Shown in pieces: positions 5,164-23,974 of a stretch of DNA of 64,000 bases (position 1 is its first letter; each line of letters starts with the position of its first letter). The translations under genes and the position numbers were made by a program. Below the pieces are notes generated by a model, which made no database searches, was not told the origin of the DNA, and was given only the letters and a program-made list of their open reading frames with translations. Origin of the DNA: a virus; IMG/VR virus record IMGVR_UViG_3300021961_008712, positions 96,001 through 160,000 of that record; one strand, written 5' to 3'.

Positions 5164-5973
5164 ATGGCAAAAAATGTTGTTGTAAGTCTTTCTGGAGGGA
5201 TGGACTCCTCTACTTTACTACTTAGATGTTTATCTGAGTACGACAATGTAACAGCTTTATCTTTTGATTACGGTCAAAAGCATAGAGTAGAACTTGAAAG
5301 AGCTCAATCTTTAGTAGATTATCTAAATGATAATGTCTATTTTAGAAACGGTGATCAGATTAAGTATCAGGTTATTAAATTAGACGGGTTAGTAAATCTT
5401 CTTAACTCTGCTTTAGTAACCGGAGGTGCTGATGTACCAGAAGGACATTATGAGCAAGATAATATGAAAGCTACAGTAGTACCTAACAGAAACAAAATAT
5501 TTGCTTCTTTAGTTCAAGCAGTTGCTTTATCAGCAGCTAATGCTAATGGAAACAATACAGATATTGCATTAGGTATTCATGCTGGTGATCATGCTATCTA
5601 CCCTGACTGCCGTCAAGAGTTTAGAGATGCAGATGATGCTGCTTTTAGAATAGGTAACTGGGATGCTGAAAAGGTAGGTTACTTTACACCTTATTTAGAA
5701 ACTGATAAGTTTGGTATTCTACAAGATGGTGAAAAATTATGTAAGGATTTACAAATAGAATTCGATGAAGTTTACAAACGTACGAATACTTCTTACAAAC
5801 CTTACCCTTCAGGTAACTCGGATTATAAATCTGCTTCTTCCGTAGAACGTATTGAAGCGTTCATTAAGTTAGGTAGAAAAGATCCAGTTCAGTATGAAGA
5901 TGAGACAGGACCTGTGTCTTGGGAAGTAGCTAAGGCTGCAGTTGAAAAGGTATTAACCGATTACGTAGCTTAA
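5164..5973 (+). CDS. queC: 7-cyano-7-deazaguanine (preQ0) synthase
   Basis: SLSGGMDS, FDYGQKH, VPNRN, YPDCR. Confidence 0.95.
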   Translation: MAKNVVVSLSGGMDSSTLLLRCLSEYDNVTALSFDYGQKHRVELERAQSLVDYLNDNVYFRNGDQIKYQVIKLDGLVNLLNSALVTGGADVPEGHYEQDNMKATVVPNRNKIFASLVQAVALSAANANGNNTDIALGIHAGDHAIYPDCRQEFRDADDAAFRIGNWDAEKVGYFTPYLETDKFGILQDGEKLCKDLQIEFDEVYKRTNTSYKPYPSGNSDYKSASSVERIEAFIKLGRKDPVQYEDETGPVSWEVAKAAVEKVLTDYVA

Positions 5974-5979
5974 ATTATA

Positions 5980-6049
5980 GATCCAATTAGGTTGTGCATG
6001 CAATTAGCTCCTCAACCTCTTGCACTTGCAGATGTAAAGTGATTGGATC
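5980..6049 (+). ncRNA. candidate structured RNA (three-way junction with kissing loops)
   Basis: 10-bp closing stem GATCCAATTA/TGATTGGATC; two internal hairpins whose loops TGCAA and TTGCA are complementary. Confidence 0.5.
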
Positions 6050-6053
6050 AAAC

Positions 6054-6127
6054 GCCTCCGTAGCTCAGTTGGCTAGAGCAGCTGATTTGTAATCAGCAGG
6101 TCGTGGGTTCGAATCCCTCTGGAGGCT
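6054..6127 (+). tRNA. tRNA-Thr (TGT)
   Basis: Acceptor GCCTCCG/TGGAGGC, D arm GCTC/GAGC, anticodon arm GCTGA-TTTGTAA-TCAGC, T loop TTCGAAT. CCA is not encoded. Confidence 0.96.
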
Positions 6128-6142
6128 CAAAGAGTAAAATAT

Positions 6143-6736
6143 ATGGGAGTCTATATTGTTGCATTACCGAGAACAGGGTCCACCATGCTCACCAAAGCTT
6201 TTGGTGCACAGCACGGGTGGAAGATTTACGCTGAACCTTGGAATCCATCATCTTTTGAATCCTATAATACTTTTAGCTTAAAAGAGGTACATAAAGACAG
6301 TCCTATTGTAGTGAAAACAATGATTGATGCTGTACCAGAATCTCATAAAGGTCCTGCTTATACCTTTCATGTTGAGATGGCTAAATACTTTGATAAGGTA
6401 ATACTTCTAGATAGATTTAATACACAACTACAAATAGAGAGTCTGCTATATGCTAAAAAGACAGATGAATGGCATAAAAAATATACTGTTAAAACCCAAT
6501 CTGTAGAAGAACTGCAAGGACTGAGAAGTTATGTTGAAAAACAAAAAGCACAACTAGAATGTTTATCTGTTGAATTAAATAATAATATTATATACTACGA
6601 GGATTTGTACTCTGGAGACTCTAGTACTAAAGACTCAATATTAGAAAGTTGGGGTCTGGTTAGTCAGAAAGCAAGACCATTTTTTGACCCTAAGTATAAA
6701 TATAGACAACGTAATACCGAGCAGATACTGTTATGA
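6143..6736 (+). CDS. sulfotransferase-like P-loop protein
   Basis: 5'-PSB-like motif ALPRTGSTML, EPWN, YYEDL. Confidence 0.7.
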   Translation: MGVYIVALPRTGSTMLTKAFGAQHGWKIYAEPWNPSSFESYNTFSLKEVHKDSPIVVKTMIDAVPESHKGPAYTFHVEMAKYFDKVILLDRFNTQLQIESLLYAKKTDEWHKKYTVKTQSVEELQGLRSYVEKQKAQLECLSVELNNNIIYYEDLYSGDSSTKDSILESWGLVSQKARPFFDPKYKYRQRNTEQILL

Positions 6737-8391
6737 TACAATTAGGAATTTCAGCTTTTTACCATGATGCCGCAGCATGTATTGTTATAGACGGAAAGGT
6801 AGTAGCAGCAGCCGAAGAAGAAAGATTTACAGAAATAAAACACGACTTATCTTTTCCAATAAATGCAATTAATTATTGCTTGAAAGAAGCGGGAATATCT
6901 ATCAATGATGTACGTCAAGTATGTTGGTATGAAATCCCAGCAGTAAAAAAACATAGAGTTTTAAGTATATTTAAAAAAAGATGGATAAGGACTCTCTTTA
7001 CTAAAAGAAAATTTCTTAAAGAATTCGAAAACAATAATCCAGAAAAACTTCTAAAAGAAATAGGGTACGAAGGAGAAATATCGTATATTGCTCACCATTT
7101 AAGCCACGCTGCATTTTCTTATTTTACCAGCCCTTACTCAGAATCAGATATTCTAGTAATTGACGGAGTAGGAGAATGGGATACAGTAAGTCTCTGGAAA
7201 GGTAAAGATAAGAAAGTAGACCTAATAGAAAGCTTCCAGTTTCCCTATTCTTTGGGTATGTTTTACTCTACGATGACTGCTTTCCTAGGATTTAAACCTA
7301 ATGAAGGTGAGTATAAAGTAATGGGATTAGCTCCTTATGGTAAACCTGCAAAGTACTACGACAAATTAAAAAGCATCTTTAATGATTCCGGTACAGAAAT
7401 CAACCAAAAATACTTTACATGGGAGTATAGCGATAAGGGAATGTTTACAGAAAAGCTAATGATGCTTTTAGAGATTGTTCCAAGAGATCCAGGAACTGAA
7501 GTAACACAAGATCATAAAGACCTAGCAGCAGCAACTCAAGCTATTTACGAATTTTACTTTTTAAAGTTTGTAGAGATGATCAAATCTGCTAGCGGTTCAG
7601 ATAATTTATGCCTAGGAGGTGGATGTGCATATAATGGAGTAGCCAACAATAAGGCTTACAAATTTTATCAAAATATTTATATCCCCTATGCTCCATCTGA
7701 TGCAGGATCTGCTATTGGTGCATGTCTCGTAAATTACCAGGGACCTAGACGTAATAATACATCTCCATACTTAGGAGAAAAAATTAATAACGATGATTTA
7801 CCTATTTTACTAGAATCTTACAAAGATAGAGTAAACTACTTAGAATTTGCAGAAGATCAACTCTGTAACAGAGTAGCAAAACTAATACTAAACGGTAAAA
7901 TAGTTGCCTGGGTACAAGATAGAATGGAATTTGGAGCTAGAGCTTTAGGTAATAGGTCAATTTTAGCATCACCTCATGATCCTAAAATGAGAGAAAAATT
8001 AAACTATGTTATTAAGAAAAGAGAAGGGTTTAGACCTTTTGCACCTTCCGTAATAGCTACCGATGTAAACAATTACTTCATTGCCAAGGATAATGTACCT
8101 TATATGAACCAAGTAGTAAAGGTTAAAAGAAATGCACAAAGTTTATTTCCTGCTGCTACACACGTAGATAATACTGCTAGAATACAATCAGTAAATATAA
8201 AAGACAATCCAAAGTACTATTTATTATTAACTGAGCTAAGAAAGCTAACTGGTCATGGAGTTGTACTAAATACCTCATACAACTTAAAAGATCAGACTAT
8301 CACTAGAACAGCTACTCAAGCAATAGAGAGGTATTTAGATAGCGATATCGATTATTTGATTTTAAACAACTATATTATTATTAAAAAATGA
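6733..8391 (+). CDS. carbamoyltransferase, NodU/CmcH family
   Basis: HDAAAC, EEERF, HHLSHA, DGVGE, EYKVMGLAPYG, EFGARALGNRS, RPFAP, LNTSYN. Confidence 0.95.
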   Translation: MIQLGISAFYHDAAACIVIDGKVVAAAEEERFTEIKHDLSFPINAINYCLKEAGISINDVRQVCWYEIPAVKKHRVLSIFKKRWIRTLFTKRKFLKEFENNNPEKLLKEIGYEGEISYIAHHLSHAAFSYFTSPYSESDILVIDGVGEWDTVSLWKGKDKKVDLIESFQFPYSLGMFYSTMTAFLGFKPNEGEYKVMGLAPYGKPAKYYDKLKSIFNDSGTEINQKYFTWEYSDKGMFTEKLMMLLEIVPRDPGTEVTQDHKDLAAATQAIYEFYFLKFVEMIKSASGSDNLCLGGGCAYNGVANNKAYKFYQNIYIPYAPSDAGSAIGACLVNYQGPRRNNTSPYLGEKINNDDLPILLESYKDRVNYLEFAEDQLCNRVAKLILNGKIVAWVQDRMEFGARALGNRSILASPHDPKMREKLNYVIKKREGFRPFAPSVIATDVNNYFIAKDNVPYMNQVVKVKRNAQSLFPAATHVDNTARIQSVNIKDNPKYYLLLTELRKLTGHGVVLNTSYNLKDQTITRTATQAIERYLDSDIDYLILNNYIIIKK

Positions 8392-8504
8392 AATTAATTA
8401 AATTTATCAAAAATCTTATATTTAAGTGGAAGCAAAACAGAAAATATAAGAAAAAGCTTAAAGAATTGAAAAAAAGAGATCCTTTTATTTACAAAAACTT
8501 CTAG
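8388..8504 (+). CDS. small basic protein ending DPFIYKNF (DUF5989-like, not in ORF track)
   Basis: ATGA overlap with the carbamoyltransferase; PFIY tail resembles small carbamoyltransferase-associated proteins. Confidence 0.55.
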   Translation: MKLIKFIKNLIFKWKQNRKYKKKLKELKKRDPFIYKNF

Positions 8505-8519
8505 CTAGTTATACCTACC

Positions 8520-8528
8520 CTATTTATA
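8520..8528 (+). promoter_or_regulatory. second promoter-like motif (C)TATTTAT(A/T), probably phage late class (representative of 11 copies)
   Basis: Intergenic copies at about 1019, 3798, 8521, 24496, 31735, 34554, 39945, 44696, 48873, 59952 and 61826, each upstream of a gene start. Confidence 0.7.
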
Positions 8529-8544
8529 TAATATCAGTAGCAAC

Positions 8545-10266
8545 ATGGCGAATTTCACTAACACAAAAATTAATCAGACTTTTCAAAGAGTCGTTCAAGT
8601 TAACGGCAATGCCGAACTACAGGACGGTCTAGGTAGACAATTGTCTGGTTCTATGGGTGATCTAACTGTTAACGGTACATTAGGTATCACTGGATATTCT
8701 GATGTATCTGCATCTTTAGCTCAACTTCATACTTTTAGTTCGTCATTAGACAATACCTTCGCTACAGATAATGAACTAGCAGCAGTTTCTAGCTCTCTTG
8801 CTTTAGAGACAGCACAACTATTAAATTTTAGTGCTTCTTTAGATGCAACTTTTGCTACTGATGCAGAATTAAGTAGCTTATCAAGCTCGATTTCTGCTAC
8901 ATACCTTTCTAATGATGAATGGATTTTCCACTCTGCTTCTATCAGAAACGACATTTTTGCAGACAGTGTTAGAATTGCCTTCTTTGAAAATAAAACTTTA
9001 GTTTCTGGTTCTAGTCAAATTGATTTAACTCAAACAACCAACTATAGTGCGATTTCTAGTTCTATAGCAGATCTACAAAATTTTAGTGCTTCTTTAGATG
9101 CAACTTTTGCTACTGATGCTGAATTGTCCGCACTTTCTAGTTCTGTTGCTTCTACATACCTTTCTAATGATGAATGGACTTTCCACTCAGCATCTATAAG
9201 AAATGATATCTTTGCAGATAGTGTCAGAATAGCTTTCTTTGAAAATAAAACTTTAGTTTCTGGTTCTAGTCAAATAAATCTTAGCCAAGCTACAGGAATC
9301 GCAGCACAAGCTATTACCGCATCCTATGCAATTTCTGCATCTCATGAAATTACTTATGAGCTATCATCTTCATATGCTAATTTTGCAACTACTGCTTCAC
9401 ATGCATTAAATGTACCTGATATTAGTGCTGTAAATGCTTATACAAGTTCTATAGATGCTAGAGTAATAAGCTTAGAGACGTTAAGTTCTTCTTTAGACAC
9501 ACTATTTCTATCAGAAGAAGAATGGACTTTCCATTCAGCCTCTATTAGAAATGATATTGCTTTTGATAGTAGTAGAATAGCAGTTTTAGAAAATAAAACT
9601 TTAGTAAGTAGTTCAGCCCAAATTACTGATTTTGGCTTTATTTAATCGTCACATACTGATATTGCAGCATTAAATTTATTTACAGGTTCGATACAAGCAG
9701 AAGTTAATAGTTTAAATGCAGCAACAAGTTCTTTCTTAACAAGTTTAACAGCCAACACATTAGATGAACTTGCTGATGTAAATGATTACAATGCATCTAC
9801 TATTACTGACGGTTACAGGTTAGCATGGGATAGTGGTAGTCAAGAATGGGCACCAGCACCTAGTAGTACGTTTAAAGGTACAACTCGATTATTTATTTCA
9901 ACTACCAGAAGTAATAGTTCAACATTTTTCTTCAATTCAATTACCCGTACAGCAACCGATTCTCCATCACCAGTTGCAGATAGTGCTTTCTTACTTACAT
10001 CAGCTTTACTTAGTAAAGTTACTATTTACTTAAGAAATGATGCCGCATCAGCAAATGCATGTACAGTGGAGGTATTCAAGAATGCAGATGGAGCAGGTTT
10101 TGCATCTGCTTCATCAATTGCTACTGATTCAGGTACGTTAAATACCGATGTAATAACTACATTTAGTTTTACTGGATTATCTTTAGCACAATTTGATTCT
10201 ATACACATCAAAGTTACGCCTACTATAGCAGGTGGACAATACTACGGTATAGTAATTATTGAGTAA
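8545..10266 (+). pseudogene. Ser/Ala-rich repeat protein (fibre or virion-like) interrupted by one in-frame TAA at 9643-9645
   Basis: The frame stays open from 9646 to 10266 with the same composition, so ORFs 8545-9645 and 10066-10266 are one frame. Confidence 0.75.
8824..9275 (+). repeat. intragenic direct repeat, 255-bp (85-aa) period, with a third partial copy near 9480-9625
   Basis: NFSASLDATFATDAELS...YLSNDEW.FHSASIRNDIFADSVRIAFFENKTLVSGSSQI starts at 8824 and again at 9079. Confidence 0.9.
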
Positions 10267-10317
10267 AAAGTTGCATATGAAATAAAAAGTTCTTATATTA
10301 TTATAATAGAAGACAAC

Positions 10318-10345
10318 AGTGTCGTAGCACCACTTTAAAAACACA
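10318..10345 (+). ncRNA. preQ1-I-like riboswitch aptamer
   Basis: AGTG-TCGTAGCAC-CACT-TTAAAAACACA, located between the promoter and ATG 10349 at the head of the queD/queE unit. Confidence 0.78.
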
Positions 10346-10348
10346 TTT

Positions 10349-10600
10349 ATGAAAACAGAAGAACAAAGGTTATTAGACGAACTCTACGATGTAGAGACAA
10401 GAAGAGTATCTAAAATTAAAGATCTCTCCACCTCACCCACACTTGAAGATTATCCCGACGCAAAAAAACATCAAATTGTGTCGTTTATTAAATCAGGAAT
10501 TCGTATATTAGGATATATACTTATTCCTTTTGATTTATTTTGGGCAGCAGGAATATTAGTATTATCAGAAGTTGTTGGAATATTAGAAGAGTTGGTATGA
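10349..10600 (+). CDS. small membrane protein, first gene after the riboswitch
   Basis: Hydrophobic C-terminal half (ILGYILIPF...AAGILVLSEVVGIL). Confidence 0.7.
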   Translation: MKTEEQRLLDELYDVETRRVSKIKDLSTSPTLEDYPDAKKHQIVSFIKSGIRILGYILIPFDLFWAAGILVLSEVVGILEELV

Positions 10601-10761
10601 TAGAGGTAGTTAAGCACACTTTAGGAATTTGCGGAGAGCATTGGCATCCTAGTGCACTTACAGTATTAGCTAGCAGTCCATTATTTGTAGCTACAGTTAA
10701 CTACATTAAATGTAAATGCGGCGGATTGTTTAATCATAAAAAAAGTTGTAATAATGAGTAA
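10597..10761 (+). CDS. small Cys/His-containing hypothetical protein (likely start ATG 10597)
   Basis: Overlaps both neighbours; HTLGICGEHWHP. Confidence 0.6.
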   Translation: MIEVVKHTLGICGEHWHPSALTVLASSPLFVATVNYIKCKCGGLFNHKKSCNNE

Positions 10762-11224
10762 ATTTCAATCAACAAAAGTATTTGATGGATTTAGTACCTG
10801 CTTTAGACAATGGAAAGCAGAAGATACTCATTGTAGGTTTCTACATGGGTATGGAGTTTCAATTAAAATTTGGTTCGAAGGTGAATTAGATGAAAGAAAC
10901 TGGGTATGGGACTTTGGCGGTATGAAAAGAGCTAAAGGTAAAATAGACGGTTTATCTCCTAAAGAATGGTTTGAGTATATGTTTGACCATACTGTTATTG
11001 TAGCAGAAGATGATCCGCAATTAGGAAATTATTTCAGAAAAATGGACCGTAACGGTACAATCCAACTGCGTGAAGTACCTGCTACTGGAGCAGAGAAGTT
11101 TGCCGAATTTGTGTACTCAAAAGTTAATCCTTTTATTGAGGAAGAAACTAACGGTAGAGTAACTATTACTAAAGTAGAATTCAGAGAACACGATAAAAAT
11201 TCAGCTATTTATGTCCCTAGGTAG
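10754..11224 (+). CDS. queD: 6-carboxytetrahydropterin synthase
   Basis: HCRFLHGY, DFG, FDH, E near the C-terminus; PTPS/QueD fold. Confidence 0.9.
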   Translation: MSKFQSTKVFDGFSTCFRQWKAEDTHCRFLHGYGVSIKIWFEGELDERNWVWDFGGMKRAKGKIDGLSPKEWFEYMFDHTVIVAEDDPQLGNYFRKMDRNGTIQLREVPATGAEKFAEFVYSKVNPFIEEETNGRVTITKVEFREHDKNSAIYVPR

Positions 11225-11987
11225 AATAGAAGATTATAATAAAGTACTACCCATCGTTGAACTTTATACTGCAGTACAATCTGAAGGTTCTAGACAAGGT
11301 TATCCGACTATTGTCATAAGAACAACAGGATGTACTCATAGATGCTACTTTGGAGAAGGTGGCTGGTGTGATAGCTGGTATACTTCTATTCACCCAGAAA
11401 AAGGTAGATATACCTTTAATGATATCATAGATATGTACGATAAAAATCCTCATATCTCAGAAATGATGTTAACCGGTGGTTCTCCTTCAATGCACGGCAA
11501 ATTAGTAAACGAATTAACACACCTAGCACATGAAAGAGGTATTTTTATCACTATGGAGAACGAAGGTAGTCATTACCTTGAGACCGATTATCCTATTGAT
11601 CTCCTGTCTATTAGCCCTAAGTTCTCTAATAGTGTTCCTATTATTGGCGTATCCACACCTCAAGGTGGTATAGTAGATGATAGAATGGTTAAACAGCATA
11701 ATAAGTATAGATTAAATTTAGACGCTATTAGAAAGTCAATTGCGTATCATAAGGACTACCATATTAAACCGGTATTAGATAAAGACTTAACTATATACAG
11801 CGAGGTTAGGCAGTTTTTAGATAGCCTAAATATTCCTAATGAAAAAGTCTGGATGATGCCAGCTGGAGATACAAGAGTTGCATTATTTGAAACTTATCCT
11901 GTAGTTATGGATTTTTGTAGAGATGAAGGTTACAGATTTACAGGAAGAGCACACATAATGGCATTTGATACACAACGAGAAGTATGA
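11211..11987 (+). CDS. queE: 7-carboxy-7-deazaguanine synthase (radical SAM)
   Basis: VQSEG, RTTGC..C..CDS, LTGGSP, ENEGS, SISPK. Confidence 0.92.
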   Translation: MSLGRIEDYNKVLPIVELYTAVQSEGSRQGYPTIVIRTTGCTHRCYFGEGGWCDSWYTSIHPEKGRYTFNDIIDMYDKNPHISEMMLTGGSPSMHGKLVNELTHLAHERGIFITMENEGSHYLETDYPIDLLSISPKFSNSVPIIGVSTPQGGIVDDRMVKQHNKYRLNLDAIRKSIAYHKDYHIKPVLDKDLTIYSEVRQFLDSLNIPNEKVWMMPAGDTRVALFETYPVVMDFCRDEGYRFTGRAHIMAFDTQREV

Positions 11988-12238
11988 GTTTTATTATAGG
12001 ATCAAAATGTATTGGTACTAAAGATGGAGCCTGTATTGCAGTCTGTCCAGTAGACTGTATTGCAGAAGGAGAAGAATCTATGTACATTAATCCTGAAGTA
12101 TGCATTGACTGTGGTGCATGTGTCCCGGAATGCCCTGTAGAAGCTATATTTGATACAGAAGAACAAGCAATCGCAGCCGGAGAATTAGAAGCAGTAAAAA
12201 AGAATTATCAATTTTATGGTTTAACATACAAACAATGA
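11984..12238 (+). CDS. dicluster ferredoxin
   Basis: C..KDGACIAVCPVDCI and CIDCGACVPECPVEAI. Confidence 0.93.
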   Translation: MSFIIGSKCIGTKDGACIAVCPVDCIAEGEESMYINPEVCIDCGACVPECPVEAIFDTEEQAIAAGELEAVKKNYQFYGLTYKQ

Positions 12239-12806: not shown

Positions 12807-12835
12807 GCAAAAATTCGTATATTAAGATATAGATA

Positions 12836-12864: not shown

Positions 12865-12870
12865 AAATTA

Positions 12871-13542: not shown

Positions 13543-13551
13543 GAGTATATT

Positions 13552-14277: not shown

Positions 14278-14278
14278 A

Positions 14279-15448: not shown

Positions 15449-15472
15449 AATTATTTTTATTATATTATAGAT

Positions 15473-17143: not shown

Positions 17144-17957
17144 AATAGCTCACGAGAGTCCTAAAAGCATCTTTGATACTGTACAGAAGTTTACAGATTA
17201 CGATTATGCATTAGTTCATCTATTTGAAGAAGATGAAGAGTACTTAAATATGTTTAAAAAAGCTGTAAGTAGAGGGAGAGAAGTAATTCTCGATAACTCT
17301 ATTTTTGAGTTAGAAGAAGCTTTTGATGCAGATAGATTTGCATACTGGATTAAAGAATTGAGACCTACTTGGTATATTGTTCCGGATGCATTAGAGGATT
17401 CTAAGCGAACTATGAATCAAATGGCTGAATGGAATATGAAATACTCAAACGTTCCAGGTAAGAAAATTGGAGTTGTTCAGGGTAAGACATATGAGCAAAT
17501 TAAAGCTTGCTACATCTTTATGGATGAAATCGCAAAGGTAGACATGATTGCTATCTCTTTTGACTATTCGTATTATACTGAATCTGTCCCTCATCCTAAC
17601 AAATACGTAAGTTGGATGCTTGGGAGAGTTAAACTACTCGGAGACTTAATGAGAGACGGTGTGATAAACGAGAAGAAGCCTCATCACCTATTAGGATGTG
17701 GATTACCTCAAGAATTCCAATACTATAAACACTCAGACTATAATTGGCTGTATTCCTTAGATACCTCTAATCCGGTAGTACACGGTATTAAGGGTATAGA
17801 GTATAAAGACCAAGGACTTTGGAGTAAAGAATCGCAGAAACTATTTGAGATGATTAATAGTGAAGTAAGTATGGATCAACTTCATCTCATTAAGTATAAT
17901 ATTCAAAAATTTAGATGGTTTACAAATGGGCAGACGGACGTGGATAGCATTTTTTAG
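17136..17957 (+). CDS. dpdA: TGT-fold 7-deazaguanine insertion protein (DpdA-like, probably DpdA3 type)
   Basis: ILDNS, VPD, GVVQG, HHLLG and SLDTS follow the TGT motif order; located in the que cluster. Confidence 0.72.
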   Translation: MVRIAHESPKSIFDTVQKFTDYDYALVHLFEEDEEYLNMFKKAVSRGREVILDNSIFELEEAFDADRFAYWIKELRPTWYIVPDALEDSKRTMNQMAEWNMKYSNVPGKKIGVVQGKTYEQIKACYIFMDEIAKVDMIAISFDYSYYTESVPHPNKYVSWMLGRVKLLGDLMRDGVINEKKPHHLLGCGLPQEFQYYKHSDYNWLYSLDTSNPVVHGIKGIEYKDQGLWSKESQKLFEMINSEVSMDQLHLIKYNIQKFRWFTNGQTDVDSIF

Positions 17958-18468
17958 TCAGACAGGCGGAGAAATTGCTGACCTATCAGAAAAGCTTGGA
18001 TTTTGGCCTGATAGAATTATTACAAATGAAAGACCAGATCATCTCAGAACTGTAGATCCTAGAATTGAGAAAAGAGGGTACTTTACTTTTAGTAATAAAC
18101 CAGACCTAGAAGAATATGAAGATCTTCTGGTTTACTTTCCTGGAGCATTAATAACTCTTCACGGTTGGTTGAGAATTATGCCTTCTGAAATCTGTGAGAA
18201 ATTTAGCGTGTTTAATGGGCATCCTGGCTTAATAACATTATATCCAGAACTTAAAGGTAAGGATCCTCAAATTAGAGCGTATGAAGGAAAGTATGAAAAA
18301 ATAGGAGCTGTTTTACATAAAGTTACAGCAGGTGTAGATGAAGGTCCTATAATTGCGGAAGATTATTTTCTTAACGAAGGGTTGGAGCTTAACGATATTT
18401 TTCGTAAATTAAAAGATATCAGTTTATTTATGTGGTTTGTATACTTAACAACGGTTTTAAATGATTAA
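17926..18468 (+). CDS. PurN-like formyltransferase (DpdN-like, putative preQ1 formyltransferase)
   Basis: GWLRIM, NGHPG, HKVTAGVDEGPII formyl-THF motifs; overlaps the dpdA-like gene. Confidence 0.8.
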   Translation: MGRRTWIAFFSQTGGEIADLSEKLGFWPDRIITNERPDHLRTVDPRIEKRGYFTFSNKPDLEEYEDLLVYFPGALITLHGWLRIMPSEICEKFSVFNGHPGLITLYPELKGKDPQIRAYEGKYEKIGAVLHKVTAGVDEGPIIAEDYFLNEGLELNDIFRKLKDISLFMWFVYLTTVLND

Positions 18469-18643
18469 ATGTATGGATAAAGAATTTTATTTAGTAAGAA
18501 AAAACGAAAGCAATGCATTTCAAAGATTAATGACGTTCTTTTTAGAACAAAATAAAAAATATGGTGCTGATTTCGGAGTAGCAGGAATGTACAATACTTT
18601 AAATAGGTTTTATGATAAAAAGAATAGCATTAGTAGGGGCTAG
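18461..18643 (+). CDS. hypothetical protein
   Basis: Coupled ORF downstream of an internal promoter at 18382. Confidence 0.5.
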   Translation: MIKCMDKEFYLVRKNESNAFQRLMTFFLEQNKKYGADFGVAGMYNTLNRFYDKKNSISRG

Positions 18644-19133
18644 TAGTACAGGTAAGACTACTGTCTATGAACTACTTAAAAATAAATTACCTAAATATGA
18701 ATTCGTAAACGAATCTACTAGAACTGTAGGTAGTTACGGATTTCCTATTAATGAAGAAGGTACTGATGCTACTCAACTGGCTATAAGTAGTTTTCATTTA
18801 GAAGCTTTACTGCAACCTTATAATCTAGTATTGGATAGGTGTTATATGGATTTACTCGTATATTCTAAGTTTATGGATAAATTATCTGTAAAGACATATA
18901 ACTATATTGAAGATATTTGGAATAGAGTTAAAGGTGAATATACTCACTATATCTACTTTCCTATTGAGTTCGAATCAGTAGATGACGGAGTAAGAAGTGT
19001 TAACGAAGAATGGAGAACTAAAATTGATGATGAATTTAAAGCTGTACTAGAAGGAGTTAGACAGCCTTACTTAACCGTTACTGGTTCTCCTATGCAAAGA
19101 GTTGAACAAATATTAAAATTTATAAATGTATAG
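18612..19133 (+). CDS. P-loop nucleotide kinase (NadR/AAA_28 or dNMP-kinase-like)
   Basis: GASSTGKTT, LDRC, DDGVR. Confidence 0.8.
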   Translation: MIKRIALVGASSTGKTTVYELLKNKLPKYEFVNESTRTVGSYGFPINEEGTDATQLAISSFHLEALLQPYNLVLDRCYMDLLVYSKFMDKLSVKTYNYIEDIWNRVKGEYTHYIYFPIEFESVDDGVRSVNEEWRTKIDDEFKAVLEGVRQPYLTVTGSPMQRVEQILKFINV

Positions 19134-19491
19134 ATACGAAGCAAAACTAGTCAGAGTAGTAGATGGAGATACTGCCGACGTAATGATCGATCTTGGCTTT
19201 GACGTTTGGACTAAAGCTAGATTAAGATTTAATGGAGTAGATACTTGGGAAAGTAGAACCCGAAATTTAGAAGAAAAAGAAAAAGGTTTACTTGCTAAAG
19301 AATTTACTGAATCCTACCTAACACGTAATGATGGAAAATTTCAGATTCAATCATTTGGAGTAGGTAAGTACGGTAGAGTGTTAGCAGATATATACATTAA
19401 GGGTGAGGAAAAATCTCTAAATCAACTACTAATAGAAAATGGTCATGCGTATTTTTACGATGGCGGTACAAAACAAATTTTTAAAGGTTAA
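19126..19491 (+). CDS. staphylococcal nuclease (SNase)-like protein
   Basis: RVVDGDT, RFNGVDT.E, KYGRVLA, LIENGHA. Confidence 0.9.
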   Translation: MYRYEAKLVRVVDGDTADVMIDLGFDVWTKARLRFNGVDTWESRTRNLEEKEKGLLAKEFTESYLTRNDGKFQIQSFGVGKYGRVLADIYIKGEEKSLNQLLIENGHAYFYDGGTKQIFKG

Positions 19492-19493
19492 TT

Positions 19494-20402
19494 ATGGAAG
19501 AAGTAAAGAATTATCAAGACGTTGTAGCAATTGCATCTAAACACTTAGGTAAGGTAGGCGGTGATGGGTATAAGGATACTTATGATCCTTCACTACTAGT
19601 TAAAATTCCTCGTATCTTAAATAGAGAAGGATATGGTCTTTCCGGAAAAGAATTTGTAGGAGTTGATGTATGGAATGCTTACGAAGTATCAGCTATTACT
19701 ACTAAAGGTCAACCTGTTGCTGGTATGCTTAAAATCGTATGTCCCGCGAATTCGGAATTTCACGTAGAATCTAAGTCTATAAAATTGTATTTAAACTCTT
19801 TTAATATGACGCAGATTGGTAGTACTGCTGCTGACTGTATTACCGGTATTGAAGCTAGAGTAGAGAGAGACTTAAGAGAACTTTTAGAAGCAGACGTTAC
19901 AGCAAGATTCTTTACCTCAGAAATGGAATTTGAAAGTCTAACTTTCCAGGGATACGATCCTTTAGATCAAATAACTAACTTAGATGCTATAGACTTTACA
20001 GCCTTTAAATCTGATGCTTCTCAACTAGATGTTGAAGAGCATTCATCTAGTACCGAAATAAAGTACTCCTCTAATTTACTTAGATCAAATTGTAGAGTTA
20101 CTAATCAACCGGATTGGGGTGATGTGTTTATTCGAATGGAGGGTAAAAATATTCCCACACCAGAATCAGTAGCTAAGTATATTGTTTCTCATAGAACAGT
20201 TAGTCACTTCCATGAGGAGATATGTGAAATGATTTTTAAACATTTGATGGATGCTTGTAACCCTGATCAGTTAATGGTGGCTTGTTTATATACTCGAAGA
20301 GGAGGTATTGATATTAATCCTATTAGAGCTACACACTCATTATATATACCGGACTTCTTTACTGAGCCTCTATTTACTATTAAGAAGACCCTTAGACAAT
20401 AA
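19494..20402 (+). CDS. queF: NADPH-dependent preQ0 reductase, bimodular type
   Basis: ESKSIKLYLNS, SNCRVTNQPDWG, FHEEICE, YTRRGGIDINP. Confidence 0.95.
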   Translation: MEEVKNYQDVVAIASKHLGKVGGDGYKDTYDPSLLVKIPRILNREGYGLSGKEFVGVDVWNAYEVSAITTKGQPVAGMLKIVCPANSEFHVESKSIKLYLNSFNMTQIGSTAADCITGIEARVERDLRELLEADVTARFFTSEMEFESLTFQGYDPLDQITNLDAIDFTAFKSDASQLDVEEHSSSTEIKYSSNLLRSNCRVTNQPDWGDVFIRMEGKNIPTPESVAKYIVSHRTVSHFHEEICEMIFKHLMDACNPDQLMVACLYTRRGGIDINPIRATHSLYIPDFFTEPLFTIKKTLRQ

Positions 20403-20412: not shown

Positions 20413-20673
20413 ATGCCAGAAGTACTTATAGAAGAAGAAAAGCAACTAATTGCAACTAGAGTACCACCCGGTGATAACTGGGAATTAGTAATCGATCCAG
20501 GAACTACTATTGAGGGTTTGGTTATGGCTTTAACTATGTACATGCGTAAAACTAAGTTTAAAGGTCATTATAGATTAGAACCCTTAGAAGGTAAACTCTA
20601 CATAATCAAACAAGAAGAAATCATAGTAGAAGAACCAGAACCAATGCTATTCGACTTATATGGTGAATTCTAA
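20413..20673 (+). CDS. hypothetical protein (likely start ATG 20413)
   Basis: In-frame ATG after the queF stop. Confidence 0.65.
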   Translation: MPEVLIEEEKQLIATRVPPGDNWELVIDPGTTIEGLVMALTMYMRKTKFKGHYRLEPLEGKLYIIKQEEIIVEEPEPMLFDLYGEF

Positions 20674-21242
20674 TGTCCAGACTTTTAAAAAAATATTCTC
20701 TCAAGTATCAGTATCTCAAATTAGAGCATGAGGATACAAAAGAATACTTTTCTACATTAGAAGTTAAGTGGAAAGAAATCTTTGGAAAATATTTTAGTCA
20801 AATAAAAACTGAGATCTGGATTAATGAAGAAACAGGTGAAATAAGAGATACCCCTCCAGGAGAGGAAGAACCAAAAGTAGCTAAACCAGATAAACTGAAA
20901 AAACTATATAGAAAAGCATCTACAAAAGCACACCCAGATAAAGGAGGAACAGAAGAGGAATTTGACCGTATAAAATCTTGTTACGAAAATAATGACTTTT
21001 TAGGATTACTTTCCTATGCTTCTGAAAAAAATATCAATGTAGAAGTAGATGATGAAGATGAAGAGCTTCTCAAAGCCAGTGTATTTGGATTAGAAAAAAG
21101 AATACAGACAATTGAAGCATCGCTCATTTGGAATTTTTTTAAAGGTAATAACCGTATGAAGGTTAGAGTTATTAGACAGCTCGAACACCAGCACAATATA
21201 AAAATAGACGAAAAAGAAATACTAAATCAGTTGGAATCTTGA
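20673..21242 (+). CDS. J-domain (DnaJ-like) protein
   Basis: LKKLYRKASTKAHPDKGG...EF. Confidence 0.8.
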   Translation: MSRLLKKYSLKYQYLKLEHEDTKEYFSTLEVKWKEIFGKYFSQIKTEIWINEETGEIRDTPPGEEEPKVAKPDKLKKLYRKASTKAHPDKGGTEEEFDRIKSCYENNDFLGLLSYASEKNINVEVDDEDEELLKASVFGLEKRIQTIEASLIWNFFKGNNRMKVRVIRQLEHQHNIKIDEKEILNQLES

Positions 21243-21280
21243 ATAAAAGTTCGTATATTTAAGTATTAATTAGAAAGGTT

Positions 21281-21649
21281 ATGTGTAAAGTTACATGGTG
21301 TAACACCCCTATAGAAGAAGAAGCTCATTTTGCCACCAAATACTGTAAAGTTCATAGACAGTATCAAACTTACGGTAAAAATGCTCCAGTCCGTCCTTGG
21401 TTATTTTATAAAACGGAAAAAATAGTGGCAGGTAACTTAAAATGTGAGTGTTGCGGTTACGATCCAACTCAATTTTACGATAGAGATTTAAAAGAATTAA
21501 GTGGCTTATTTGATGTAGATCACATAAATTCTAATATTAAACATACTGATGAAGGAGAACAACCTTCTAACTATCAGCTTGTTTGTAAACATTGTCATAT
21601 ACTCAAATCATATGACGAAGGAGATTTTATAAGAAAAGATTTTAGATAA
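21281..21649 (+). CDS. HNH endonuclease-like zinc protein
   Basis: CECCG, DVDHI, NYQLVCKHCHILKS. Confidence 0.8.
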   Translation: MCKVTWCNTPIEEEAHFATKYCKVHRQYQTYGKNAPVRPWLFYKTEKIVAGNLKCECCGYDPTQFYDRDLKELSGLFDVDHINSNIKHTDEGEQPSNYQLVCKHCHILKSYDEGDFIRKDFR

Positions 21650-23974
21650 ATGCAATTAGAAAAAAAGTACTACACAGTCCAAGATAGCGAAACTTTAAAG
21701 CTACTATTCCAGCATATTCAAGATTCAGATGTTATAGCAGTCGATACGGAGACTACCGGACTTAATCCTAGGAAAGATAAAATTGTAGGTTGGTCTGTAT
21801 CTGGAGAAGAAGGTATAGGTTTCTATCTTCCTACCTTAGTCTGGAACTTTCAGAAAGATGAATTAGAACTGCAGACTATTGATGATACTTCTACTGAAGT
21901 AATTTCTAAAAATTTACTAAAAGCACTGATTGGAAAAAAGCTAGTATTTCACAACGCTTCTTTCGACGTTCAGTTTATTAATAACTATTTTGGTATTAAC
22001 TTACTACCTAGTGTTTGGGTTGATACTGGATTACTTGTTCATACAGTCTATGAAGAAGGAGCCTTCGGGTTTGGTAGTCCTTTCGGACTAAAATCTATTG
22101 CTATCATGAATCAGGAAGCTCTTGGCCTGAATGTGCAAGAAGCAGCTAACCAAGAGCAGTTGGAACTGAAAGAAAGTATTAAGAAAAATGGTGGTTCTGT
22201 CACTAAAGAAAGTTTTGAAATTTATAAAGCTGATCTGGATATTCTTAGCAAGTATGCTTCAGCTGATACTGATCTTACCCTTCGTATTTGTAATCTTTAT
22301 TTGGGTAAGCTTAGAGACGAAGGTTTGGAAGAATTCTTCTTCAACGAGGAAGTAATGCCAATCTACCGTGAGGTAACTGTACCTATGGAAGCTTACGGTG
22401 TAGATCTTGATATGGAGTTATTAGCTAAAACTTATGCTGAGATTACCGAGGATCAAGAAAAGAATAAAGAGATTGTAATGAAGTCTCTATTAGCTCTTCC
22501 GGAAGTTAAACAGTGGGTAGTAGATACTGCTATGACTAACTACCCTGTATCCCATAAAGGTAATTGGGCTCAAAAATTAGTTGAGAGATACTCTCTACCT
22601 TTACCTAAATCAGAGAAAACAGGCAAGTATACCCTTACTCAAAAAGCTATAGAAGAGTTAGAAGACTCTCCTCAAAAACAGTTTCTTCTTACCGGTGAAA
22701 ACCATTATATTAGTGAAGTAGAGCAAGCTAGAATTTCTATGAGTCTATGGAAAGAGCAAAATGATGGAGAATATCTCAATATTCAATCTAAAGCTCACTT
22801 AGGTGAAATAGTATTTAAATACATGGGTATTAAACCTAAAGTATCTGGTGCTAATACCAAGTCTGGTAGAGATAAGTTTGATATGGATATGGTAGAAGAG
22901 CTAGCTAAAGAGTATCCTTGGGCAGAAAATCTTCGTATCTACAATAAGCTCTTAAAAATAAAGTCTACTTATATTGAACGTTTTGTTAACGGTAATGAGG
23001 ACGGTAAATACTACTTCTACTTTAAGCAGAACGGTACTGTATCAGGTCGATATGGATCAGATGCACAACAGCTTCCTAAACCACTTGAACCAGGTGAAGA
23101 TGCTCCTGTAATAGAGAAGTATGTTAATATTGTTAGAGCATTCCTGATTGCAGGTAAGGGTAGAAAAGTAATTGATTGTGATTATGAATCTCTAGAACCT
23201 CACTGCTTTGCCTCAGTATCCGGTGATGAAAAACTACAAGAGATTTTTAACAATAATTACGACTTCTATTCGTATGTAGCAATACAGACTGAAAAACTTG
23301 AAGGTGTCTCTGCTGATAAATCTGCTCCTAACTACTTAAAGAAGCTAGACCCAGTTAAAAGAAATAAAGCTAAAGCTTATTCGTTAGGGGTTGCATACGG
23401 TATGGAAGCTTATGCTCTCAAAATGACGTTAGATGTTGATCAGAAAACTGCTGAAGGATTAATTAAAGGTTACTTGGATGGGTTTCCTGGTCTTGCTAAA
23501 TGGAGAGAAAATTCTAGACGCCAAGTTAAGGATGAAGGATATATTAAAAACTATGTAGGACGCGTTCGACACTTACCTAGAGTGAAGCAAATTTACTCTA
23601 AGTTTGGTGATAGAATGATGGACTGGAGATTTAGAAAAGAACTAGAGCTACAATACGGTAAAGATCAAGTAATGCAAGCATATCGAGACTATCGAAACGG
23701 ACTTAATAACTGCTTAAACTTTCAGTTGCAGTCTCTTGCCGCTGCGGTTGTTAACCGTGCTGCTCTTGCTATAAACAGAAAAGCAAAAGAACTAGGAGTA
23801 GATGCTTGTGTACAAGCTCAGGTACATGACCAGTTGGTTATTAACGTTAGAGAAGATCAAGCAGAAATGTTTGCTCCTTATGTTAAAGATCTAATGGAAA
23901 GTACCACACAGCTTCCTGGAGTTACTTTGAAAGCACCACCTGAAATTTCAATTAACTGGAGAGATGGACACTAA
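21650..23974 (+). CDS. polA: DNA polymerase family A with 3'-5' exonuclease
   Basis: DTETTG, HNASFD, YASAD exonuclease motifs; DYESLE (motif A), RNKAKAYSLGVAYG (B), QVHDQ (C). Confidence 0.95.
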   Translation: MQLEKKYYTVQDSETLKLLFQHIQDSDVIAVDTETTGLNPRKDKIVGWSVSGEEGIGFYLPTLVWNFQKDELELQTIDDTSTEVISKNLLKALIGKKLVFHNASFDVQFINNYFGINLLPSVWVDTGLLVHTVYEEGAFGFGSPFGLKSIAIMNQEALGLNVQEAANQEQLELKESIKKNGGSVTKESFEIYKADLDILSKYASADTDLTLRICNLYLGKLRDEGLEEFFFNEEVMPIYREVTVPMEAYGVDLDMELLAKTYAEITEDQEKNKEIVMKSLLALPEVKQWVVDTAMTNYPVSHKGNWAQKLVERYSLPLPKSEKTGKYTLTQKAIEELEDSPQKQFLLTGENHYISEVEQARISMSLWKEQNDGEYLNIQSKAHLGEIVFKYMGIKPKVSGANTKSGRDKFDMDMVEELAKEYPWAENLRIYNKLLKIKSTYIERFVNGNEDGKYYFYFKQNGTVSGRYGSDAQQLPKPLEPGEDAPVIEKYVNIVRAFLIAGKGRKVIDCDYESLEPHCFASVSGDEKLQEIFNNNYDFYSYVAIQTEKLEGVSADKSAPNYLKKLDPVKRNKAKAYSLGVAYGMEAYALKMTLDVDQKTAEGLIKGYLDGFPGLAKWRENSRRQVKDEGYIKNYVGRVRHLPRVKQIYSKFGDRMMDWRFRKELELQYGKDQVMQAYRDYRNGLNNCLNFQLQSLAAAVVNRAALAINRKAKELGVDACVQAQVHDQLVINVREDQAEMFAPYVKDLMESTTQLPGVTLKAPPEISINWRDGH

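Follow-up and report, generated by a model that had tools for sequence, protein, structure and literature searches.

Is guanine exchanged in the finished DNA of this phage, or on free nucleotides before the genome is copied? The question is raised by a window of 64,000 nucleotides (the whole stretch analysed here) from a 169.75-kb uncultivated phage genome in IMG/VR, in which genes for the synthesis of a formylated deazaguanine are interleaved with those of candidate nucleotide enzymes. A first-pass annotation had outlined a complete formyl-preQ1 guanine-replacement pathway at this locus and had proposed that it operates before replication.

Identification of the gene cluster

ORF calls and Pfam place all named genes on the plus strand, at or near the coordinates first given, and together with PHROG profiles and homology to immuto they confirm the presence of every one of them (Table 1). 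One correction concerns the phage ribonucleotide reductase (RNR), which is present according to Pfam but lies at 1094-3796, just upstream of the region 5164-23974 to which it had been assigned. The cluster is syntenic with that of immuto_2-6A, both having QueD, QueE, PRTase, FolE, NTP-PPase, DpdA3, DpdN, kinase, QueF, PolA and GroES/GroEL in the same order, with protein identities of 47-78%, while similarity at the nucleotide level is detectable only across ~600 bp of dpdA. Judged by its sequence, the window phage is an immuto-like relative of a known Flavobacterium phage. The DNA of immuto lacks a dG peak and contains fdPreQ1 at 345,000 per 10^6 nucleotides, and fdPreQ1 substitutes for all G in immuto_2-6A DNA (Cui 2023, NAR 51:9214). 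Synteny with a phage of this DNA chemistry supports the identification of the window locus as a formyl-preQ1 guanine-replacement system, and the cluster is very probably of the DpdA3/DpdN fdPreQ1 kind. As the pathway is homologous to that of a chemically analysed phage, the virion DNA is predicted to contain fdPreQ1 instead of G. The Flavobacterium phage with DpdA3, DpdN and formylated dPreQ1 for G, which the annotation had cited, is indeed on record (Cui et al. 2023). The DpdA3/DpdN gene set is itself already known, and the window locus is a further example of it. It differs from immuto in that dpdA3 and dpdN overlap (by 32 nt), without a small gene between them, and it has additional genes, encoding a 2OG oxygenase and two proteins of 389 and 183 aa, that are not present in 80 relatives.

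Table 1. Predicted genes of the guanine-replacement locus and its upstream flank (window coordinates)
Feature	Position	Strand	Evidence
Class I RNR small subunit	1094-2071	+	Pfam Ribonuc_red_sm 5.8e-64
Class I RNR large subunit	2081-3796	+	Pfam Ribonuc_red_lgC 2.7e-100
Thioredoxin	4533-4799	+	Pfam Thioredoxin 2.2e-17
QueC (preQ0 synthase)	5164-5973	+	Pfam QueC 1e-38
QueD (CPH4 synthase)	10754-11224	+	Pfam PTPS 6.6e-14; 70% identity to immuto QueD
QueE (radical-SAM CDG synthase)	11211-11987	+	Radical_SAM 1.6e-4, under Pfam cut-off
2x[4Fe-4S] ferredoxin	11984-12238	+	Pfam Fer4 5.9e-11
Gpt-like 6-oxopurine phosphoribosyltransferase (PRTase), short, 134 aa	12402-12806	+	Pribosyltran 2.8e-7
FolE (GTP cyclohydrolase I)	12838-13542	+	Pfam GTP_cyclohydroI 1.1e-43
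MazG-superfamily all-alpha nucleoside-triphosphate pyrophosphohydrolase	15876-16409	+	PRA-PH 3.6e-9; phrog_671 2.5e-27
DpdA3, minimal TGT-fold transglycosylase, 273 aa	17136-17957	+	Immuto homology, predicted structure; no Pfam match
DpdN, PurN-like formyltransferase	17926-18468	+	Formyl_trans_N 1.9e-8; NCBIfam PurN 7e-9
AAA_28 P-loop kinase	18612-19133	+	AAA_28 1.2e-17; phrog_2107 1.2e-23
QueF (bimodular preQ0 reductase)	19494-20402	+	QueF_N 3.3e-29; QueF 2e-18
Family A DNA polymerase (PolA) with 3'-5' exonuclease	21650-23974	+	DNA_pol_A 2e-55; DNA_pol_A_exo1 3.6e-13

Among the synthesis genes, the window QueE shares 72% identity with the annotated immuto QueE, and the adjacent ferredoxin, whose gene is found in only some relatives, is the probable electron donor for QueE. 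The reading frame of FolE more likely begins at an in-frame ATG at 12871 than at 12838. The thioredoxin is a likely reductant for RNR.

DpdA3 and DpdN

The window DpdA3 shares 75.6% identity with immuto DpdA; for the CP220 and phiST proteins the values are 42% and 24.6%, respectively. Its AF2 model (pLDDT 89) finds tRNA-guanine transglycosylases as top Foldseek matches (E 3e-8, TMq 0.65), and the protein is a stripped-down TGT barrel with two Cys and no zinc motif, in which the motifs LDN[SG], QG and SxD[ST] are conserved in 10 of 13 compared sequences. The TGT-superfamily fold is common to bacterial DpdA/DpdB and phage DpdA1/DpdA2 (9g, CAjan, phi-Grn1), all of which, like DpdA3, are accompanied by preQ0/preQ1 synthesis genes. 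A conserved H-x-x-G ... S-x-D-S/T segment can be aligned with 9g-type DpdA, but overall profile-profile similarity is negligible (0.75% probability), and DpdA3 is ~45 residues shorter than 9g DpdA and lacks its Cys cluster. DpdN shares 52% identity with its immuto counterpart. Among other phages, DpdA3 is fused either to DpdN, as in P0177 and P0231, or to a GNAT-like domain. DpdA3 is the sole type with which complete replacement is seen, the level for DpdA1/DpdA2 being 0.1-30%; in CP220-infected cells the ADG nucleoside was detected in the cytoplasm (Cui 2023, NAR 51:9214).

Neighbours of DpdA3 in other phages

The AF2 model of the AAA_28 kinase (pLDDT 89.5) matches NadR-RNK, dNKs and TMPKs in Foldseek, and its P-loop, DRxxxD and DDGVR motifs are conserved. 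The predicted fold is that of a small-molecule nucleoside/nucleotide kinase (TMPK/dNK/NadR-RNK-like), which makes the earlier 'NMP kinase' a reasonable putative label. In an HMM tally, all 57 DpdA3 loci with sufficient flank have the kinase at a distance of no more than 2.7 kb, and none of the 19 controls (9g-like loci of the DpdA1 type and phi-Grn1) has a kinase-HMM match; because one clade supplies most of the 57, the independent lineages number about 10. The AAA_28 kinase gene stands zero to four genes from DpdA3 in the window, immuto, CP220, L073, L078, L083, L084, L103, L105, L107 and L108, and an AAA_18 P-loop protein takes its place in phiST. The DpdA3 proteins of L103, L105, L107, L108 and CP220 share only 35-49% identity with one another, and each has the kinase nearby. 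Kinase homologues are also encoded in 89 records of Streptomyces phages without a DpdA3 match.

A dNTP pyrophosphatase is usually encoded directly upstream of DpdA3, of the MazG type in the window, immuto and phiST and of the dUTPase fold in L107 and L103, a case of non-orthologous replacement at a single position. The window protein has the acidic EExxE...D motifs and is 77.8% identical to the immuto NTP-PPase. Neither the MazG nor the dUTPase family is seen among the tallied or annotated neighbours of the 9g-like and phi-Grn1 control loci. MazG homologues are nonetheless not specific to DpdA3 phages, since 218 phage records contain them and they are frequent in phages without deazaguanine.

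The best PDB matches of the PRTase are archaeal GpT-1/GpT-2 and E. coli XGPRT; the PRPP motif, RGG loop and C-terminal W-I-x-x-P-W-E are conserved, while the match to NCBIfam xanthine PRTase (6e-9) is under the curated cut-off. Its family was found in 28 of 50,697 phage records, 26 of which are DpdA3 or DpdA3-like phages (immuto, phiST, the CP220 group, Brevundimonas). DpdA3 itself is present in 21 of the 28 (Fisher 2e-71, from only 3-4 lineages); a DpdA3 phage contributes two more records through its other contigs, another comes from Campylobacter phage CC_R7, a CP220-group relative absent from the DpdA3 match list, and Brevundimonas phages, whose DpdA3-like gene is divergent, account for two. 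A weak match to the PRTase profile occurs in one of the 19 control loci (9g-like, phi-Grn1). In the window, immuto, L073, L051, L103 and StAshley, the PRTase gene adjoins that of FolE or lies close to it.

Co-occurrence with dpdA3/dpdN, which the first-pass annotation had suggested as a check, is thus positive for the PRTase, nearly limited to DpdA3 phages, and for the kinase, near DpdA3 in every sampled lineage; for MazG it is not specific, and what holds is the usual position of a pyrophosphatase of some fold. The positive outcome for PRTase and kinase makes a nucleotide-level route plausible. The Z-genome-like pre-replicative route of that annotation gains real comparative-genomic support, is still unproven and conflicts with the published post-replicative proposal.

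Possible routes of guanine exchange

We tentatively prefer an exchange in the nucleotide pool before replication (probability about 0.4), suggested by the gene neighbourhoods. FolE, QueD, QueE with the ferredoxin, QueC and QueF would convert GTP to free preQ1, DpdN would add a formyl group to its aminomethyl group, and DpdA3 would swap guanine for the deazaguanine, assignments that are well supported by homology. The MazG-type pyrophosphatase may turn dGTP into dGMP, both removing the competitor and supplying the substrate; DpdA3 would then exchange the base of the mononucleotide (or of the nucleoside). Its product would be rephosphorylated by the AAA_28 kinase, host NDK would form the triphosphate, and phage PolA would insert it into DNA. 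The Gpt-like PRTase could return the freed guanine via GMP to GTP, on which FolE acts in the first step of deazaguanine synthesis. If true, guanine would be swapped on free nucleotides before replication, and not on finished DNA as published. Besides the gene neighbourhoods, this reading draws on the small-molecule fold of the kinase, the observation of complete replacement with DpdA3 only, the failure of DpdA3 in the E. coli DNA-modification assay, the cytoplasmic ADG nucleoside of CP220 infection and the reduced TGT barrel of DpdA3.

A similar logic is known from the T4 hydroxymethylcytosine pathway (gp56 dCTPase, gp42 dCMP hydroxymethylase, gp1 dNMP kinase) and the Z-genome pathway (MazZ, PurZ, DatZ). 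In these, as in the proposal, a pyrophosphatase both depletes the canonical dNTP and supplies a dNMP, which is altered by a second enzyme, rephosphorylated by a kinase and then incorporated by the polymerase, and replacement is complete. The proposed dNMP-altering enzyme is, however, a TGT-fold base exchanger, where T4 and the Z-genome phages use thymidylate-synthase-like and PurA-like enzymes, respectively; the new base is made apart, as a free base from GTP, and all three activities are predicted. Several points count against the preferred mechanism: all characterised TGT-fold enzymes act on polymers (tRNA or DNA), and to our knowledge none acts on a mononucleotide; the substrate specificities of MazG, kinase and PRTase are not readable from their sequences; MazG homologues abound in phages that lack deazaguanine, and kinase homologues occur in the Streptomyces phages mentioned above; the P-loop protein may instead be an ATPase helper of a reaction on DNA; and the 57 loci represent about ten independent lineages.

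Only slightly less probable in our view is that the genome is copied with normal dGTP and that DpdA3 then replaces every DNA guanine with preQ1 or formyl-preQ1, as argued by Cui 2023 (NAR 51:9214). A DNA transglycosylase role is the simplest homology inference from the TGT/DpdA fold, 9g DpdA and its relatives act on DNA, with partial replacement, and the DpdA3 fusions, whether with DpdN or with a GNAT-like domain, suit tailoring on DNA as much as on the base. MazG would be a house-cleaning or dUTPase-type enzyme, the other neighbours would be accessory, and the PRTase is explained equally well, as recycling guanine freed from DNA. The kinase would phosphorylate dNMPs in general or, like DpdB with bacterial DpdA, would assist the reaction on DNA as an ATPase. 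This leaves unexplained why DpdA3 is flanked by a small-molecule kinase fold and a dNTP pyrophosphatase in such different lineages (T4-like myoviruses, immuto-like phages and phiST), when both are missing beside DpdA1 and DpdA2. It also demands an error-free, sequence-independent swap at each G, and the E. coli DNA-modification assay of the authors showed no activity for DpdA3 (Cui 2023, NAR 51:9214).

The version favoured by the first-pass annotation, in which the PRTase condenses PRPP with preQ0, preQ1 or formyl-preQ1, the kinase forms the diphosphate, phage RNR reduces it, host NDK completes the dNTP and PolA incorporates it, appears unlikely. Its chemistry has a precedent, since TubE of tubercidin biosynthesis is proven to join CDG to PRPP in vitro (Liu et al. 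2018, PMC6112128). The near restriction of the PRTase to DpdA3 phages, its position adjoining a T4-gp1-like dNMP kinase and RNR in phiST and Brevundimonas StAshley, and the RNR genes of the window are in its favour. However, the PRTase was not found (E <= 0.01) in three DpdA3 phage genomes that are 94-100% complete (G002-G004), whereas DpdA3 and the kinase are never missing, and the adjacency of PRTase and FolE in several lineages fits guanine recycling into GTP at least as well; this variant is weaker for these reasons. Moreover, the universal DpdA3 would be left without a necessary role, merely clearing residual G or serving some other purpose, in most lineages the kinase adjoins DpdA3 and not the PRTase, RNA would take up the ribonucleotide product as well, and the window PRTase, besides falling under curated cut-offs, is ~25 residues short of its phiST and L103 homologues. 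TubE/ToyH of tubercidin and toyocamycin biosynthesis are, like the phage protein, type I PRTases found alongside FolE, QueD and QueE homologues; the phage protein is much shorter, with 134 aa as against 194 aa, is nearest to Gpt/XGPRT-type enzymes and may simply use guanine.

Organization of the locus and its relation to immuto_2-6A

The 169,750-bp IMG/VR virus record that contains the window (bases 96001-160000) is rated complete by CheckV. Searches with Pfam, PHROGs and NCBIfam identify co-oriented genes at 5164-23974, among them all the pathway, DpdA3 (transglycosylase), DpdN (formyltransferase), phosphoribosyltransferase (PRTase), MazG, kinase and DNA polymerase A (PolA) genes named in the first-pass annotation; the phage ribonucleotide reductase (RNR) genes that it had listed with them are real but lie just upstream, at 1094-3796. 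All five enzyme families of the preQ1 pathway (FolE, QueD, QueE, QueC, QueF) are present and intact, as judged by Pfam and, for QueE, by identity to the annotated protein of the Flavobacterium phage immuto_2-6A.

Features of the window
Feature	Position	Strand	Remark
RNR small subunit	1094-2071		
RNR large subunit	2081-3796		
Thioredoxin	4533-4799		
QueC	5164-5973	+	
tRNA-Thr (anticodon UGU)	6054-6128		Rfam tRNA, 67.8 bits
197-aa protein and carbamoyltransferase pair	6143-8391		
NodU/CmcH-type carbamoyltransferase	6733-8391		Carbam_trans_N and _C, ~1e-60
Candidate riboswitch element	10314-10348		
QueD	10754-11224	+	
QueE	11211-11987	+	Below Pfam cut-off; 72% identity to annotated immuto_2-6A QueE
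2x[4Fe-4S] ferredoxin	11984-12238	+	Directly after QueE
Gpt-like PRTase, 134 aa	12402-12806	+	
Candidate riboswitch element	12835-12868		
FolE	12838-13542	+	Start more likely 12871
2OG-Fe(II) oxygenase	13552-14277		
389-aa protein	14279-15448		
MazG-superfamily pyrophosphatase	15876-16409	+	
183-aa protein	16592-17143		
DpdA3, 273 aa	17136-17957	+	No Pfam match
PurN-like formyltransferase (DpdN)	17926-18468	+	32-nt overlap with the DpdA3 gene
AAA_28 P-loop kinase	18612-19133	+	
Staphylococcal-nuclease homologue	19126-19491	+	Overlaps kinase gene end
Bimodular QueF	19494-20402	+	
Family A DNA polymerase (PolA)	21650-23974	+	
Chaperone set (DnaJ-domain protein, Hsp20, GroES, GroEL) and NadE	20673-21242, 24579-27011, 27011-27763		Flank the polymerase

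The window and immuto_2-6A share the gene order QueD, QueE, PRTase, FolE, NTP-PPase, DpdA, formyltransferase, 'thymidylate kinase', QueF, PolA, GroES, GroEL, with protein identities of 47-78%. The DNA of immuto_2-6A has no detectable dG and contains the formyl-preQ1 deoxynucleoside (fdPreQ1) at 345,000 per 10^6 nucleotides, and complete replacement of a canonical base in virion DNA has been described for immuto_2-6A, phiST and CP220 by the same authors, who coined the names DpdA3 and DpdN (Cui et al. 2023). The statement in the first-pass annotation that a Flavobacterium phage with DpdA3 and DpdN has formylated dPreQ1 for G is borne out by that report. By homology to this chemically analysed phage, the cluster would make preQ1, formylate it and put the product in place of G, and the locus is a new uncultivated member of an already known system. 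The DpdA3 family is abundant: clustering at 90% leaves 3,970 proteins, and clustering at 50% gives 2,841 clusters (E <= 1e-3).

DpdA3, DpdN and the variable slot

The window DpdA3 belongs to the DpdA3 subfamily by homology to the proteins of the complete-replacement phages (tblastn identities of 75.6% to immuto_2-6A, E 6e-134; 42% to CP220, 4e-46; 24.6% to phiST, 2e-4). Sequence searches of the PDB with DpdA3, a DpdA3 profile, the MazG-like protein and the kinase found no significant match, and fold searches were therefore needed. A Foldseek search of the PDB with the AlphaFold2 model of DpdA3, built with ten homologues as input (pLDDT 89.2), gave tRNA-guanine transglycosylases (TGTs) and the non-catalytic QTRT2 subunit as the 50 highest-ranking matches, at best with E 3.3e-8 and TMq 0.65; the predicted structure confirms a TGT-like (beta/alpha)8 barrel and bears out the earlier 'TGT-fold' call, which sequence methods were unable to make. 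DpdA3 is a stripped barrel with only two cysteines and therefore has no TGT-type zinc site.

Thirteen DpdA3 or DpdA3-like sequences were compared, and ten of them retain all three motifs LDN[SG], QG and SxD[ST]. Individually, LDN[SG] is found in 12 of the 13 (the Brevundimonas phage StAshley has MDNS), QG in 12 (absent from contig L103) and SxD[ST] in 11 (absent from L103 and StAshley, with a second match in contig L083). By comparison with known TGT motifs, the conserved acidic motifs may hold counterparts of TGT Asp102 and Asp280, as candidate general acid/base and nucleophile. Comparison of the DpdA3 profile with that of 9g-type DpdA using hhalign gave a probability of 0.75%, the catalytic segment alone being aligned, with the SxD segment of DpdA3 placed on the S-C-D-S-S segment of 9g DpdA. 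DpdA3 and 9g-type DpdA do not differ in isoelectric point (both pI 5-6.3) or net charge, which were compared as a rough indicator of DNA binding and are uninformative.

DpdN has a PurN-type formyltransferase domain (Formyl_trans_N, 1.9e-8; PurN TIGR00639, 7e-9) with FNGHPG and VDEGPII sequences, which correspond to the N-x-H and downstream Asp catalytic motifs of PurN. It is 52% identical to the immuto_2-6A DpdN at the same position and shares its cluster with DpdA and with every pathway gene from FolE to QueF. Natural DpdA3-DpdN fusions from metagenomes, P0177 and P0231 (447 aa), with 41-43% identity to the window in the DpdA3 part and 39-40% in the DpdN part, agree with the overlap of the two genes in the window. 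Another homologue, P0225, carries a GNAT-like C-terminal extension, and relatives without DpdN have a GNAT or amidoligase-like protein between DpdA3 and the kinase (contigs L073:6918-8444; L084:2905-3918, 4414-4857; L083:9028-9510). A slot occupied by a formyltransferase, GNAT or amidoligase predicts that phage DNA contains further preQ1 bases, N-acyl or N-aminoacyl, that are as yet undescribed.

Genes associated with DpdA3

The first-pass annotation had looked to co-occurrence with DpdA3 for the roles of the kinase, the PRTase and the MazG-like protein; the association holds for the kinase, in every lineage examined, and for the PRTase, which is nearly restricted to DpdA3 phages, but MazG homologues are not specific.

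The window kinase scores 65 bits against AAA_28 (cut-off 27), contains P-loop, DRxxxD and DDGVR motifs, and shows the P-loop, DR-type motif, LID arginine and fold of TMPK/dNK-like P-loop kinases. Its model (pLDDT 89.5) is matched in Foldseek by NadR-RNK (TMq 0.79), dAK, dNK, dCK and TMPK, and on this predicted structure it is a small-molecule nucleoside or nucleotide kinase. A true Tmk is ruled out by the dTMP-kinase model TIGR00041 (24 bits against a cut-off of 83).

Gene order around DpdA3 in the phages and contigs compared
Phage or contig	Order or distance
Window and immuto_2-6A	DpdA3, DpdN, kinase
CP220	DpdA3, kinase
phiST	MazG, DpdL, AAA_18 P-loop protein, DpdA3
L073, L078, L083, L084	Kinase within 0-4 genes of DpdA3
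L103	QueE, DpdA3, QueC, kinase, HAD phosphatase
L105	DpdA3, DpdN, kinase, QueF
L107	dUTPase, DpdA3, kinase
L108	DpdA3, kinase

A P-loop kinase lies 0-4 genes from DpdA3 throughout, and the DpdA3 proteins of L103, L105, L107, L108 and CP220 share only 35-49% identity with one another. AAA_28 is the commonest Pfam family among DpdA3 neighbours (7 of 8 loci). With our own HMMs, the kinase was found within 2.7 kb of DpdA3 (median gap 647 bp) in 57 of 57 loci flanked by 3 kb or more on each side, which come mostly from one clade and represent roughly ten independent lineages, and in none of 19 control loci (9g and relatives, phi-Grn1). Among seven DpdA1-type loci, AAA_28 occurs once, as does an NMN-transporter family; a pairing of the two would suggest a NadR-type kinase, the tally not resolving whether both genes share a locus. 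Because of the NAD synthase gene (NadE) near the polymerase of the window, a ribosylnicotinamide kinase is still a rival reading of the AAA_28 protein. Streptomyces phage Jay2Jay (L002) and a further 88 Streptomyces phage records also encode homologues of this kinase, ~30% identical and annotated as thymidylate kinase; in these phages of ~130 kb they belong to the replication module, a few genes after MazG. The 89 records have no DpdA3 match.

The MazG-like protein has intact acidic EExxE...D motifs, and its homologues are widespread (218 phage records) and therefore not specific to DpdA3 phages; what recurs is a dNTP pyrophosphatase, usually just upstream of DpdA3. This slot holds a MazG-type enzyme in the window, immuto_2-6A and phiST and a dUTPase-fold enzyme in contig L107, with one encoded nearby in L103, which amounts to a non-orthologous replacement of one function. 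In L107, a T4-like contig, the dUTPase-fold gene adjoining DpdA3 (4230-5987) is interrupted by an intein/homing element (Intein_splicing and MTES_1575 matches).

The PRTase has the three hallmarks of 6-oxopurine PRTases, namely a PRPP acidic motif (LLIIDDIADTGDT), a pyrophosphate-binding RGG loop (GIPRGG) and a C-terminal aromatic base-stacking motif (GWIVYPWE), which are conserved in the family alignment and align with GpT-1, GpT-2 and XGPRT; in the PDB, it matches GpT-1/GpT-2 of archaea and XGPRT of E. coli best. It has neither a curated-level score (35.6 bits against a cut-off of 138 for the NCBIfam xanthine PRTase profile) nor a full-length catalytic flexible loop, and ~25 residues found in the phiST and L103 homologues are missing. 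On sequence comparison it is Gpt-like and not an equivalog.

With the window PRTase as query, 13 of 50,697 phage records were matched, nine of them DpdA3 phages. A profile search found the CP220 homologue, which in turn matches all Firehammervirus records, and the union amounts to 28 records, of which 21 are also DpdA3 records (Fisher 2e-71, record level). The other seven are two further contigs of a DpdA3 phage, two Brevundimonas phages, Campylobacter phage CC_R7, which had no match in the DpdA3 search, a weak Synechococcus phage match and a 4-kb fecal fragment. The distribution of homologues puts the PRTase close to a signature of DpdA3 phages, but it is not universal, being absent from three relatives that are 94-100% complete.

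One Brevundimonas phage, the cultured alphaproteobacterial siphophage vB_BpoS-StAshley (ON529865, record 4468-15775; L113/L114), has the order QueC, QueD, QueE, x, 266-aa protein, DNA polymerase, x, RNR, dNMP kinase, FolE, PRTase. The protein of 266 aa, annotated as hypothetical, is a divergent DpdA3-like protein (hhalign against the DpdA3 profile, 87%, E 4e-6; blastp to CP220, 1e-5). There is no QueF in StAshley, and the phage is thus a candidate for high-level G replacement of the dPreQ0/dADG type, which as far as we have seen is unreported.

Where the base might be exchanged

Whether the exchange takes place in the nucleotide pool or in DNA can only be inferred, as sequence cannot decide among three routes. 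The reading we favour, at a probability of roughly 0.4, is a nucleotide-level route from MazG through DpdA3 and the kinase to PolA, with guanine recycled by the PRTase. MazG would convert dGTP to dGMP, DpdA3 would swap the base on the nucleotide, the kinase and then the host NDK would rebuild the triphosphate, and PolA would incorporate the deazaguanine triphosphate. The released guanine, one per substitution, would be returned by the PRTase to GMP and then GTP, the substrate of its frequent neighbour FolE. Every lineage sampled has genes for the candidate enzymes, DpdA3 or the PRTase together with the AAA_28 kinase, and these genes are linked in the genome. Neither NDK nor guanylate kinase nor HD was matched in the phage's own genome, a weak negative given that the same search, with PF00156, missed the known PRTase.

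The conserved trio of dNTP pyrophosphatase, DpdA3 and kinase resembles the architecture of T4 gp56/gp42/gp1 and of Z-genome MazZ/PurZ, which are pre-replicative pathways. We prefer the nucleotide-level route because of this architecture and because complete replacement is seen only with DpdA3, DpdA3 failed in the authors' E. coli DNA-modification tests, and the ADG nucleoside was observed in the cytoplasm of infected cells (Cui et al. 2023). Only slightly less probable is exchange after replication, the P-loop protein then being a generic kinase or DpdB-like helper; this is the published view, and DNA-level exchange by DpdA3 is the only mechanism proposed (Cui et al. 2023). A PRTase-first pre-replicative route, put forward in the first-pass annotation, has a precedent in TubE, the CDG:PRPP phosphoribosyltransferase of tubercidin biosynthesis (Liu et al. 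2018, PMC6112128), but is improbable, as DpdA3 would have no explanation under it and some genomes do without the PRTase.

Somewhat more tentatively than the nucleotide-level route as such, we suggest that DpdA3 may be the first TGT-fold enzyme to exchange a base on a free deoxynucleotide or deoxynucleoside, and not a DNA transglycosylase. It would then act with a dGTP pyrophosphatase and a dedicated kinase in a pre-replicative pathway to 7-deazaguanine dNTPs, and this pathway would explain why G is completely replaced in immuto-like, phiST-like, Firehammervirus and Brevundimonas phages, with the PRTase closing a guanine-to-GTP-to-deazaguanine loop.

A modified-dGTP route was floated earlier for Campylobacter phages, and for the sister genus Fletchervirus the use of dITP has been suggested. 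CP220 gp055 (HD + AAA_33), which adjoins DpdA3, was not counted as a dGTPase, as we take it to be more like an HD-Pnk end-healing enzyme. In the literature that we searched, a nucleotide-level route in DpdA3 phages is neither established nor tested by any paper, and none reports or tests these gene associations; a 2026 preprint on deazapurine genome mining does not treat phages.

Complete substitution of a 7-deazaguanine for guanine is known from three phage groups. A kinase always beside DpdA3, a pyrophosphatase usually upstream and a near-exclusive PRTase reopen the question of complete G replacement and narrow its mechanism to a short list of enzyme assays on the cultured phages immuto_2-6A, phiST and CP220. 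The nucleotide-level route, if true, would extend the pre-replicative genome substitutions (hmC, hmU/dU, Z) by a fourth base, give the TGT fold a new activity and offer an enzymatic route to 7-substituted 7-deaza-dGTPs.

Other features of the window

Two near-identical elements of ~30 nt, GUGUCG(U/C)AG..CCACUUUAAAAAC, each preceded by a TATA-like box and with an ATG just after its end, lie one upstream of the small ORF (at 10349) with which the queD-queE-PRTase block begins, the other upstream of folE. They may be preQ1-I riboswitches, which if real would place the PRTase under preQ1 control; Rfam returned for them only an 11-bit match to DUF805 RNA (E 5-8).

Three genes inside the cluster appear specific to the window or nearly so. 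The oxygenase and the 183-aa protein between MazG and DpdA3 are absent from 80 of 80 IMG/VR relatives, and the 389-aa protein has one 36% match among them. In the ESM Atlas, the two unassigned proteins match viral hypothetical clusters only, with a weak glycosyltransferase-10 lead for the 389-aa protein. All three may be moron or sugar-related inserts, or provide a further tailoring step. Directly after QueC, beyond the tRNA gene, the carbamoyltransferase follows a 197-aa protein that faintly matches a sulfotransferase; this pair, found in some relatives only, may have a glycan or DNA tailoring role. The staphylococcal-nuclease homologue is conserved in many relatives and could degrade G-containing host nucleic acid.
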